Shown here in pieces: positions 20,301 through 23,300 of a DNA stretch of 56,049 bases (its first letter is position 1; each line of letters opens with the position of its first letter). Source of the stretch: a virus (taxonomy: Duplodnaviria > Heunggongvirae > Uroviricota > Caudoviricetes); IMG/VR virus record IMGVR_UViG_638341086_000013, positions 1 to 56,049 of that record; one strand, 5' to 3'. The position numbers are program-made.

Positions 20301-23300
20301 AACTCAATTAGCACTCGAACGACGAAGTAAAGAACGCGAAAAAGCGGAAAAAGCAGCAGAGAAGAAACGACGACGAGAGGAGCAGAAACAGAAAGATAAA
20401 CTGAAGATTCGAAAACTCGCCTTAAAGCCCCGCAGTTACTGGATTAAACAAGCCCAACAAGCCGTAAACGCCTTCGTCAGAGAAAGAGACCGCGACTTAC
20501 CATGTATCTCGTGCGGAACGCTCACGTCTGCTCAGTGGGATGCCGGACATTACCGGACAACTGCTGCGGCACCTCAACTCCGATTTGATGAACGCAATAT
20601 TCACAAGCAATGCGTGGTGTGCAACCAGCACAAAAGCGGAAATCTCGTTCCGTATCGCGTCGAACTGATTAGCCGCATCGGGCAGGAAGCAGTAGACGAA
20701 ATCGAATCAAACCATAACCGCCATCGCTGGACTGTCGAAGAATGCAGGGCGATCAAGGCGAAGTATCAGCAGAAACTTAAAGACCTGCGAAACAGCAGAA
20801 GTGAGGCCGCATGACGTTCACAGTAAAAACCATTCCTGACATGCTCGTTGAGGCATATGAAAATCAGACCGAGGTAGCCAGAATACTGAACTGTAGTCGC
20901 AACACGGTCAGAAAATATATTGGCGATAAAGAAGGCAAACGGCACGCCGTCGTCAACGGTGTCCTTATGGTCCATCGTGGATGGGATAAGGGTAAAGACT
21001 CTGATGCGTGATATTCAGCAGGTGCTTGAACGCTGGGGCGCATGGGTGGCCAATAATCATGAGGATGTGAGCTGGTCGCCCATTGCCGCCGGATTTAAGG
21101 GGCTGATCCCGTCAAAGGTTAAATCACGGCCTCAGTGTACCGATGACGATGCGCTGATTATCAGCAATTGCATGGCGCAACTGAACGTCAACAACAGCGA
21201 TTTGCATGATTTTCTGTATGATTATTATGTGTTCGGGATGACGCTTATGTCACTGGGCCGTAAGCATGAGCGCTCTGATTGCTGGGCCGGGCGGGTACTG
21301 CAAAAAGCAGAAGGTGTTATTGAGGGGATGTTGATCATGCAGGGAGTAAAGCTGGAAATGGACAGGTACGTTGAGCGTGAACCATCAGGATCACAGGCCA
21401 GTCAGTTTGCCGGACGTGCGGGAAATTGAAAGCGCGAGTTTTTACTGTAGAATAGCTGCGGGTGCTTGAGGCTGTCTGCCTCGGGCATGCAGCCGTAAGG
21501 CAGACAGAGAAAAGCCCCAGTTAACATTACGCGTCTTGCAGGACGCTTAACATTAATCTGAGGCCAAATCTATGACTTACAAACTTAGGTTAGCCTCTTA
21601 CGTGCCGAAAGGCAAGGAGAAGTAGGCTATGAAGCAGTAAAAGGCGATGTTAATCGCCCTGATCGTCATCTGTATTACCGTCGTAGTGATAGCACTGGTA
21701 ACGAGGAAAGACTTCTGCGAGGTACGAATCCGAACCGGCCAGACGGAGGTCGCTGTCTTCGTAGACTACGAATCTGAGAAGTAAGAGACCAGGCAGGGGA
21801 GTAATCTCCCGCCACCTCTGATGTGTCTGGCATCCTCAACGCACCCGTACTTTATTTGTCATATGCTCCGCAAAATGCAGGTTGTCGTTGCAACCAATGC
21901 GGTAATTTTTTGTGTGCGAGTGCTCAAAAAACGTTGATTTTCATAAAAGGATGATTTTATGCTGCCAGACCAGCGACCAGCGACCAGCGACCAGCGACCA
22001 GCGACCAGCGACCAGCGACCAGCGACCAGCGACCAGCGACCAGCGACCAGCGACCAGCGACCAGCGACCAGCGACCAGCGACCAGCGACCAGCGACCAGC
22101 GACCAGCGACCAGCGACCAGCGACCAGCGACCAGCGACCAGCGACCAGCGACCAGCGACCAGCGACCAGCGACCAGCGACCAGCGACCAGCGACCAGCGA
22201 CCAGCGACCAGCGACCAGCGACCAGCGACCAGCGACCAGCGACCAGCGACCAGCGACCAGCGACCAGCGACCAGCGACCAGCGACCAGCGACCAGCGACC
22301 AGCGACCAGCGACCAGCGACCAGCGACCAGCGACCAGCGACCAGCGACCAGCGACCAGCGACCAGCGACCAGCGACCAGCGACCAGCGACCAGCGACCAG
22401 CGACCAGCGACCAGCGACCAGCGACCAGCGACCAGCAGTAAATCAAGAAAGTCTGTAAAATCTGTTGAGCCGGAAATTACCGAACTGGCGAACTCATGGC
22501 TTAAATCTTACAGGCTTGATTACAAGTTGCAGAATGCATCACTTAACGGAGAGATCGATAACGCACTGGACGCTTATTTTTCGAAAAATGGCGGCGCAGG
22601 CGGTAATCGTCCCGACGTAAAACTCCTTGTTAAGGACAAATACGGCAAGCAGTATCCCGTTCTCATCGAGTATAAAGGCTACAAGGACAGGCTTATCAGA
22701 CTTGGCAGCAACGGTATTATTGAGAACAAAGATGCCAGAAAAGAATGGAATTTTAAAAATATTAATGGATACGCGGTGAATGGCGCAGTCCATTATGCCA
22801 ACGCACTTCTTCAGTTCACCAATTACCCTGATATTATTGCTATTGGTATGACCGGCTGGCGCGATGATGGTACAGGCGAACTGCATCATGAAATCGGCGT
22901 GTGGTACGTATCAAAGAATAATTTAGGAGCCGGACAGAAGGTTGGTGAATTCACCGACTTATCGTTCCTTGCTGACAAAAATGTTGATGGATTTCTCAAC
23001 AAGATAAAGCTGCTTAATCTTCCTCCCGAAGAACTGGAAAAAATCAAGGCCAGCAAAGAGGAAGAGATAGACACGCGACTTTCCCGTCTGAATAACGATA
23101 TTTACCAGAATGAAAAGGGGCTTGGTGAAAGCGATCGTGTTTACCTTGTTGTGGCTACCGTTATTGCAACGTTGGGGATTCCGGGAAAGTTAGCACCGCT
23201 GGATAAAAAAGAACTGACCTCTTCAACGGAGGAGGACTTGCGTGATGGTGATATTATTTTCAGGAAAATAAGGAATTTTTTAAGGCTGAAAGCTGTTCCT

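Follow-up and report, generated by a model that had tools for sequence, protein, structure and literature searches.

A candidate phase-variation switch made of 7-bp repeats in a prophage-borne BcgI-like restriction-modification gene of Escherichia coli

What does a long and flawless array of heptanucleotides do at the 5' end of a restriction-modification (RM) gene carried by a temperate phage? The question is raised by a DNA stretch of 56,049 nucleotides from a tailed virus (IMG/VR record IMGVR_UViG_638341086_000013; the whole stretch is called the window hereafter). In the window, the unit GACCAGC is repeated 67 times immediately in front of the body of an RM gene (22437..24488, + strand; 683 codons plus stop), which is followed by a gene for a specificity (S) subunit. 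An earlier note on this DNA had proposed the array as a candidate phase-variation switch. This proposal is supported here by the position of the array in the coding region, its hypervariable copy number, the occurrence of all reading frames among relatives, and the purifying selection acting on the enzyme. As a working reading, to which a probability of about 70% is given, the array would be a simple sequence repeat (SSR) that switches the RM gene through slipped-strand phase variation.

Direct read-out, Tandem Repeats Finder, and our own period scan all describe positions 21968..22436 of the + strand as a flawless period-7 array, (GACCAGC)67, of 469 bp. Tandem Repeats Finder reported a period of 7, 67.0 copies, 100% matches, 0 indels, and a score of 938, and the scan identified the tract as the sole perfect period-7 run of the 56-kb window. 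In an alternative register, the array reads (CAGCGAC)66 at exactly 21971..22432, and the 66 perfect copies that the earlier note had placed in the 5' coding region were thus recovered by all three approaches. A perfect repeat of this length is far beyond chance. Because 7 and 3 are coprime, the tract is open in all three + frames, and each of them encodes the same heptapeptide repeat, DQRPATS. The minus strand is likewise open. An open reading frame (ORF) on that strand (21859..22446) is annotated elsewhere as 'YXWGXW repeat-containing protein' or 'hypothetical protein', and the ends of the ORF predicted by the NCBI annotation pipeline PGAP move with repeat number and frame in near-identical loci. 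This minus-strand ORF is spurious, an artefact of the stop-free repeat. Just behind the tract, the sequence contains two TAA stops (22439..22441 and 22456..22458, + strand), each of which shuts one non-productive frame. Both OFF frames are closed at most 22 nt past the tract, and in OFF-state loci the ORFs from both upstream ATG codons stop there.

In nearly all genomes, PGAP places the start of the enzyme, labeled 'HsdM' (653 aa), at TTG 22527..22529, downstream of the tract. This annotation is most likely a mis-start that drops 30 conserved codons. Full-length homologues without the repeat, from Neisseria, Providencia, Methylophilaceae, and Salmonella, share 72-73% identity with the RM body at a coverage of 98-100% of its 683 residues. 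They start 3-16 residues before a conserved S[IV]EP motif, i.e., at the end of the tract (Neisseria, MTQASKKSNKSIEPNIADLANGWLKSY...; Providencia, MARLQSVEPN...; Methylophilaceae, MAQSIEPN...; Salmonella, MNSQQPTAKSQKAVKSVEP...). In an alignment of 21 homologues, S9, E11, P12, N19, W21, L22, L27, and Y29 are invariant, and all of these residues are encoded upstream of TTG 22527. The alignment to the PADLOC family profile begins at residue 10. Between two E. coli alleles, both with long tracts, the 30 codons separating the tract from the TTG show a ratio of non-synonymous to synonymous substitutions (dN/dS) of 0.13-0.20. The TTG itself has no usable Shine-Dalgarno (SD) sequence (best anti-SD duplex -2.5 kcal/mol, gap 11), and no in-frame ATG, GTG, or TTG was found between 22437 and 22527 when the sequence was read. 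With a conserved N-terminus at the tract end and no start codon before TTG 22527, translation would therefore have to run through the tract. On these sequence grounds, the tract lies within the RM coding sequence, between a conserved SD/ATG and a conserved protein N-terminus. A start upstream of the tract would yield DQRPATS-repeat peptides and the peptide SKSRKSVKSVEPEITELANSW.

Two ATG codons upstream of the tract can be considered. ATG 21959..21961 (MLPDQRPATS...) is invariant in all loci and is the only candidate start with a properly spaced SD, the sequence AAAGGA at 21946..21951 (-5.4 kcal/mol, 6-nt gap), which is conserved in all alleles. ATG 21951..21953 overlaps this SD (gap 0, -2.8 kcal/mol), is replaced by ATA in E. 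coli strain 48, and is probably weak or unused. Three non-expanded alleles, P0004 with 3 units and P0015 and P0017 with an imperfect proto-repeat, begin with MLP(D/N)QRP and are in frame from the equivalent of ATG 21959. As for GTG 21912, it is not conserved as a start, since the leader of a second allele contains an in-frame TAA three codons upstream of ATG 21951. Taken together, these findings point to ATG 21959 as the native start. Given this start and the in-frame non-expanded alleles, the ON state would correspond to a number of GACCAGC units divisible by three, and the window copy, with 67 units, would therefore be OFF when read from ATG 21959. The most likely state of this copy is OFF or, by way of ATG 21951, weakly ON.

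What the earlier note had stated on the frames was borne out by these readings. ATG 21959, for which it had claimed the best spacing to a ribosome-binding site, does lie in another frame than the long ORF and terminates at TAA 22439..22441. The note had also calculated that 65 or 68 copies of CAGCGAC would bring this ATG in frame, and a locus with 66 GACCAGC units (L018) is indeed in frame from it. GTG 21912 and ATG 21951 are, as stated, in frame with the long ORF, which ends at 24488. The note had concluded that the present count is ON from ATG 21951; the frame is correct, but this ATG is doubtful as a start and the copy is probably OFF.

The comparison of repeat numbers in related genomes, suggested by the same note, covered 31 loci, of which one belongs to a phage record and nearly all others to complete E. 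coli genomes. Some of these loci carry 3, 16, 23, 30, 31, 50, 54, 55, 56, ~58, 58, 64, 64, and 65 units, and the others carry 66, 67, ~73, 76, 79, 80, 82, 83 (four loci), 88, 89, ~93, 94, 99, and 120 units. The count differs in 65 of the 69 locus pairs that show at most one single-nucleotide polymorphism in ~3.6 kb of flanking sequence. For instance, ten loci with identical flanks include tracts of 83, 58, 56, 64, 31, 79, 83, 76, and ~73 units. Among close relatives, copy number changes much faster than point mutations accumulate. The longest tract was observed in E. coli strain 48, isolated from deer (L171). It consists of 120 units plus GACCGT (846 bp) and is in frame from the equivalent of ATG 21959; DQRPATS repeats make up ~280 residues of the resulting 966-aa ORF. 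The four loci with 83 units (L001, L011, L013, and L176) originate from O111:H8 in Nebraska, UCPROB-002 in Chile, G6/7 in Germany, and phage PhiR12_3 from ECOR13; the recurrence of this count could reflect common descent, strains of common provenance, or a length that is favoured.

A change in the number of 7-bp units shifts the downstream frame, as the earlier note had pointed out, and all three frames occur in nature. Neither ATG is in frame in 13 of the 31 loci, ATG 21951 is in frame in 10, and ATG 21959 in 8. The loci in frame from ATG 21959 include those of strains G8 (99 units), DETEC-S792 (54), JNEC-KY173 (66), and 48 (120); 2013C-3250 (64) and E2855 (31) belong to the ATG 21951 class, and 7-32 9A (83) and CFIAFB20190167 (50) to the class with neither ATG in frame. 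The distribution is statistically uniform (chi-square ~1.2); an over-representation of the ON frame, which would have pointed to selection, was looked for among these loci and not found. The 683-codon RM body is nevertheless open in 31/31 loci, whatever the frame, and the S gene is intact in all loci but one (L175). Between two alleles, both of which carry long tracts, the RM body shows a dN/dS of ~0.05 at a synonymous divergence (dS) of ~1.5, and the ORF would therefore have been kept functional while carrying the repeat. The tracts also stay pure and show no degeneration. Most isolates thus have the gene out of frame, its alternative frames are stopped by TAA 22439 and TAA 22456, and yet it is kept intact under purifying selection despite frequent OFF states. 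As far as can be judged from sequence, this pattern is typical of a contingency locus and not of a pseudogene.

The switch would operate as follows. Ribosomes would initiate at ATG 21959 and traverse the repeat, none of whose frames contains a stop. With a number of GACCAGC units divisible by three, they would continue into the nuclease-methyltransferase (ON); with any other number, they would meet a TAA within 22 nt of the tract end (OFF). Replication slippage would gain or lose 7-bp units and thereby change the frame. MutS-dependent mismatch repair is expected to overlook 7-nt loops. Because of its overlap with the SD, ATG 21951 would allow weak expression at best, and three expression levels may be possible. 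Restriction and modification would be switched together, because the nuclease and the methylase are part of one polypeptide; polarity would be the only way in which the S subunit is affected. As a consequence, lysogen populations would be mixed with regard to phage defence and to the methylation of the host and of released phage DNA. We infer which ATG is used, that switching is reversible within a clone, and that it brings a biological benefit. Regarding the latter, one may speculate on a mixed defence among lysogens, mixed methylation of progeny phages, or an escape from the cost of the enzyme.

Several observations weigh against this reading. The uniform frame distribution fits fast switching but would also fit a neutral tract. 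The recurrence of 83 units in four loci indicates that the tract is not so unstable that each isolate differs. A few tracts carry single-base deletions (GACAGC; a single C lost), which could be long-read errors and make the frame calls of those loci unsafe. Even in frame, the enzyme might be impaired by the 70-280 residues added to its N-terminus. Moreover, the change from OFF to ON of a BcgI-like enzyme in an unmethylated cell could, in theory, be self-destructive.

Other explanations of the tract were considered. Translation from TTG 22527 in every case would make the tract a neutral, hypermutable minisatellite in a 5' untranslated leader, and nothing would be switched. The prevailing PGAP start, the PHROG 13671 profile, which also begins at residue 31, and the uniform frame classes, which look as if the frame were irrelevant, agree with this view. 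It is nonetheless unlikely: distant homologues without the repeat conserve the protein sequence encoded by the 30 codons in front of the TTG (eight invariant positions, dN/dS as given above), the TTG has no usable SD whereas a good SD and an ATG are kept across alleles just upstream of the tract, and the non-expanded alleles are in frame from that upstream ATG. The starts of the annotation and of the PHROG profile were probably inherited from gene callers that failed on out-of-frame copies. The tract may also be regarded as a runaway microsatellite whose expansion has inactivated the gene, the cassette being a decaying passenger rather than a regulated switch. In favour of this, the best start is in frame in only 8/31 loci, classical contingency loci have far shorter tracts, and the cassette is rare. 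Such decay is improbable in view of the 31 RM bodies, in none of which a stop or frameshift was found, the S gene disrupted only in L175, the dN/dS of 0.05 between long-tract alleles, and tracts that remain pure rather than degenerating.

Two further explanations are less probable still. Frame switching might be a by-product of a repeat that serves as a disordered (DQRPATS)n spacer of variable length or as a Chi-like element at the DNA level. All three frames encode one heptapeptide, and on the minus strand the array, (GCTGGTC)n, contains 67 tandem octamers GCTGGTCG that match the E. coli Chi sequence GCTGGTGG at 7 of 8 positions. It is estimated that ~0.5% of random heptamer tracts would match Chi that well, and 67 tandem sites could modulate RecBCD on phage DNA. 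No Chi activity of GCTGGTCG was found in the literature, however, where one paper only lists it among variants with one mismatch. At this site, the Salmonella homologue carries another heptamer, and length changes other than multiples of three units truncate the protein, so that frame effects are no minor by-product. This explanation is thus very unlikely. That the tract length is an assembly artefact, a collapsed or expanded repeat, is the least credible proposal, although short-read assemblies do break or collapse at the tract, many proteins in databases are marked 'partial' and have their first residue within the repeat, and viral contigs contain 9-34 units at their ends. Equally pure tracts of 23-120 units occur at the same place in ~30 independently assembled complete long-read E. 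coli genomes, and the length differences among complete genomes are exact multiples of 7. Slipped-strand phase variation of the RM gene is therefore retained as the preferred reading.

The type of enzyme that would be switched can be deduced from its domains. The translation of the RM body contains a PD-(D/E)XK-like motif (RPDVK...IEYKG) in an N-terminal nuclease region, followed by the motifs DFATGSAG and NPPY of an N6-adenine methyltransferase. One polypeptide thus combines a nuclease motif with gamma-type N6-adenine methyltransferase motifs. Pfam matched N6_Mtase (5e-21) and, weakly, VRR_NUC, and PADLOC assigned the body to REase_MTase_IIG (PDLC03616, 3.4e-232, profile positions 15-717 of 721). 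The adjacent gene (24557..25642, + strand) encodes an S subunit with two target-recognition domains (two stretches of Pfam Methylase_S; 'Type II specificity subunit' in PADLOC). This architecture is that of a predicted BcgI-like Type IIB/IIG system with a fused nuclease-methyltransferase, and the RM orthologue of a phage record is annotated as 'BcgI alpha chain-like'. No hsdR gene, which a Type I system would have, was found in the cassette, where only the RM and S genes lie between hok and the tRNA genes. The NCBI label 'HsdM family' (Type I) was rejected as misleading, given the absence of hsdR and the score of the RM protein against the hsdM model (NCBIfam TIGR00497; 36 bits), far below the cut-off of 242.75. 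A sequence search of the PDB gave no match, and an AlphaFold2 model built from a 21-sequence alignment (pLDDT 61.5, pTM 0.38) was too poor to tell whether the first 30 residues form an integral part of the nuclease domain.

The S gene contains a repeat of its own. At 24965..25016, between the two target-recognition domains, Tandem Repeats Finder detected a central 24-bp repeat encoding IEELEAAH, with two copies in the window and most strains and three in L017, L018, and L171. By analogy with EcoR124I/II-type systems, a change in this copy number could alter the spacer length of the recognition site.

Related alleles give hints on the origin of the heptamer tract. The homologue of Salmonella enterica (L023, P0029 cluster) carries a different heptamer, (ACAGCCA)x3 at ~752..790, in the same codons 2-9, behind a leader that is recognisably homologous (GTTGATTTTAAAAAGGA). 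Non-expanded Escherichia alleles have two to three GACCAGC units. As the Salmonella heptamer occupies the same codons, the site would be an old proto-repeat, and by this comparison the tract grew out of native N-terminal codons. Most members of the P0029 cluster are 689 aa long, and their repeat appears stable at 3 units. Tract-bearing alleles were also found in E. marmotae and cryptic Escherichia clades, and one Salmonella contig begins at the tract end. Scans for four consecutive heptamers yielded at least 120 loci in genome contigs, almost all in unrelated GC-rich genomes, and only 10 loci in viral contigs carried an RM homologue. A heptamer tract in Pectobacterium had no linked RM homologue.

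The window as a whole represents a lambda-like (lambdoid) prophage with a cI-type repressor, an O protein with iterons, Q, terminase, portal, tape measure, and J. Around the tract, the genes are arranged in the order Q (21004..21429), hok (21629..21784), RM, S, a remnant methyltransferase gene, and three tRNA genes (26098..26347). The hok gene (Hok/Gef toxin, + strand) was located by mapping the PGAP annotation of near-identical loci onto the window. It always lies 5' of the RM gene and is the first gene of a hok-RM-S cassette. In the second allele (87% amino-acid identity; L021 and L024), hok again precedes the RM gene, but the cassette lies in the nin region, upstream of Q. Since the cassette is found at differing prophage positions and hok always travels along, hok-RM-S behaves as a mobile cassette. 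It is rare, being present in ~30 of 5426 complete E. coli genomes. The window and the cassette-bearing prophage of O111:H8 share only 20421..26383, and the PstI-like RM system of strain 7-32 9A is not part of the window, as only this segment is common to both. Strain JNEC-KY171 contains two cassettes (L170 and L177), both out of frame. No promoter of its own was detected between hok and the RM start by a consensus scan; a conserved TGcGGTAAT at 21898..21906, read by eye, could be an extended -10 element.

Further features of the prophage were recorded. Downstream of the S gene, 25944..26347 contains the remnant of a site-specific DNA methyltransferase gene and the tRNA genes for Ile/Met-CAT, Arg-TCG, and Arg-TCT. 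Beyond them, a NanS-p-like esterase is encoded at 28024..29874, a layout that is found flanking stx in Stx phages, and no stx genes were found in the window. In the replication region, four to six iterons ATCCCTCAAAACGAGGGA (15173..15300) inside the O-like gene (14826..15764) form an ordinary lambda-type origin. A 162-bp tandem repeat (40080..40936; 5.3 copies, 99% identical) lies in frame within a portal-like ORF (39855..41402), with 54 codons per unit, and a collagen-like Gly-X-Y repeat (55431..55516) was observed in a tail-fibre ORF (54459..55778) whose PHROG matches include 'collagen like minor tail'.

A wider and much more tentative picture can be drawn from the cassette. It is possible, if doubtful in its entirety, that hok-RM-S constitutes a phage-borne contingency locus of E. 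coli, kept through a dS of ~1.5 and toggling between ON, weak, and OFF, so that lysogens and released phages are epigenetically and immunologically mixed. A change from OFF to ON in an unmethylated cell might even trigger self-restriction and an SOS-driven induction of the prophage, and thus act as a stochastic induction trigger. If the tract is a switch, the restriction barriers and methylomes of the carrier strains would be unstable, a point of relevance to phage therapy, transformation, and methylome-based typing. The carriers include O111:H8 and other Shiga toxin-producing E. coli backgrounds as well as probiotic-type strains. Temperate phages could then carry their own bet-hedging defence modules. 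At a practical level, automated annotation systematically mis-starts the RM gene and adds a spurious reverse-strand protein, and the tract is also a very polymorphic marker of the variable-number tandem repeat type.

SSR phase variation of RM genes is the basis of phasevarions, in which ON/OFF methylation alters the expression of other genes, and of variable phage defence in Haemophilus, Neisseria, Helicobacter, and Campylobacter. E. coli is instead the textbook user of invertible elements and Dam methylation, and, to our knowledge, it is generally held to lack natural SSR switches. The SSR-phase-variable Type III mod and Type I hsdM and hsdS genes of phasevarions have been surveyed (PMC5909438, PMC7383803), and the main text of the Type I survey makes no mention of E. 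coli. The present locus resembles these genes in that a repeat whose unit is not a multiple of three lies in the 5' coding region of a methyltransferase-bearing RM gene, and in that the copy number varies between strains and sets the frame. In contrast, the phasevarion genes mostly have units of 1-5 nt in a few to ~40 copies and belong to host-adapted pathogens with small genomes, whereas here a 7-nt unit in 23-120 copies (up to 846 bp) is found in a fused nuclease-methylase gene of a temperate prophage of E. coli.

With BcgI, in which the A subunit combines nuclease and methylase and the B subunit confers specificity, the locus shares its layout: a PD-(D/E)XK-type protein of ~680 aa with an NPPY motif, followed by a two-domain S subunit of ~360 aa. 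Systems of the BcgI type depend on SAM and cleave either side of a bipartite recognition site. We know of no indication that BcgI itself is phase variable or phage-borne. The gene cj0031 of Campylobacter jejuni is reportedly switched by a homopolymeric G tract. Its product is described as a phase-variable Type IIG RM enzyme (PMC4889913). As proposed for the present case, a single polypeptide with restriction and methylation activities is switched by an intragenic repeat; unlike cj0031, which has its own specificity domain, the E. coli locus combines a heptamer repeat with a separate S subunit. Alternative starts have a precedent in the lic1 gene of H. influenzae, where two starts in different frames upstream of a (CAAT)n tract give strong, weak, and no expression. 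The two ATG codons considered here also lie in different frames, and ATG 21951 might provide a low third level.

Heptanucleotide SSRs are known from H. influenzae as well, with 13-38 copies in the hmw1A and hmw2A promoters and 8-13 copies of an intragenic AACAACC (PMC2651432). Heptamer units had thus already been documented as potential switches, and the remark of the earlier note that heptamer tracts are rare, fair in itself, has to be qualified by these intragenic examples. Unlike the tract described here, the hmw repeats act at the promoter, the intragenic heptamers are much shorter, and none of them lies in an RM gene or a phage. Full-text literature searches turned up no account of the E. 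coli heptamer or of any phase-variable BcgI-like system, which is not proof of novelty. The mechanism put forward is classical SSR phase variation; what is unusual is the size of the unit, the length of the tract (to 120 units), the E. coli host, the carriage by a phage, and the BcgI-like enzyme.

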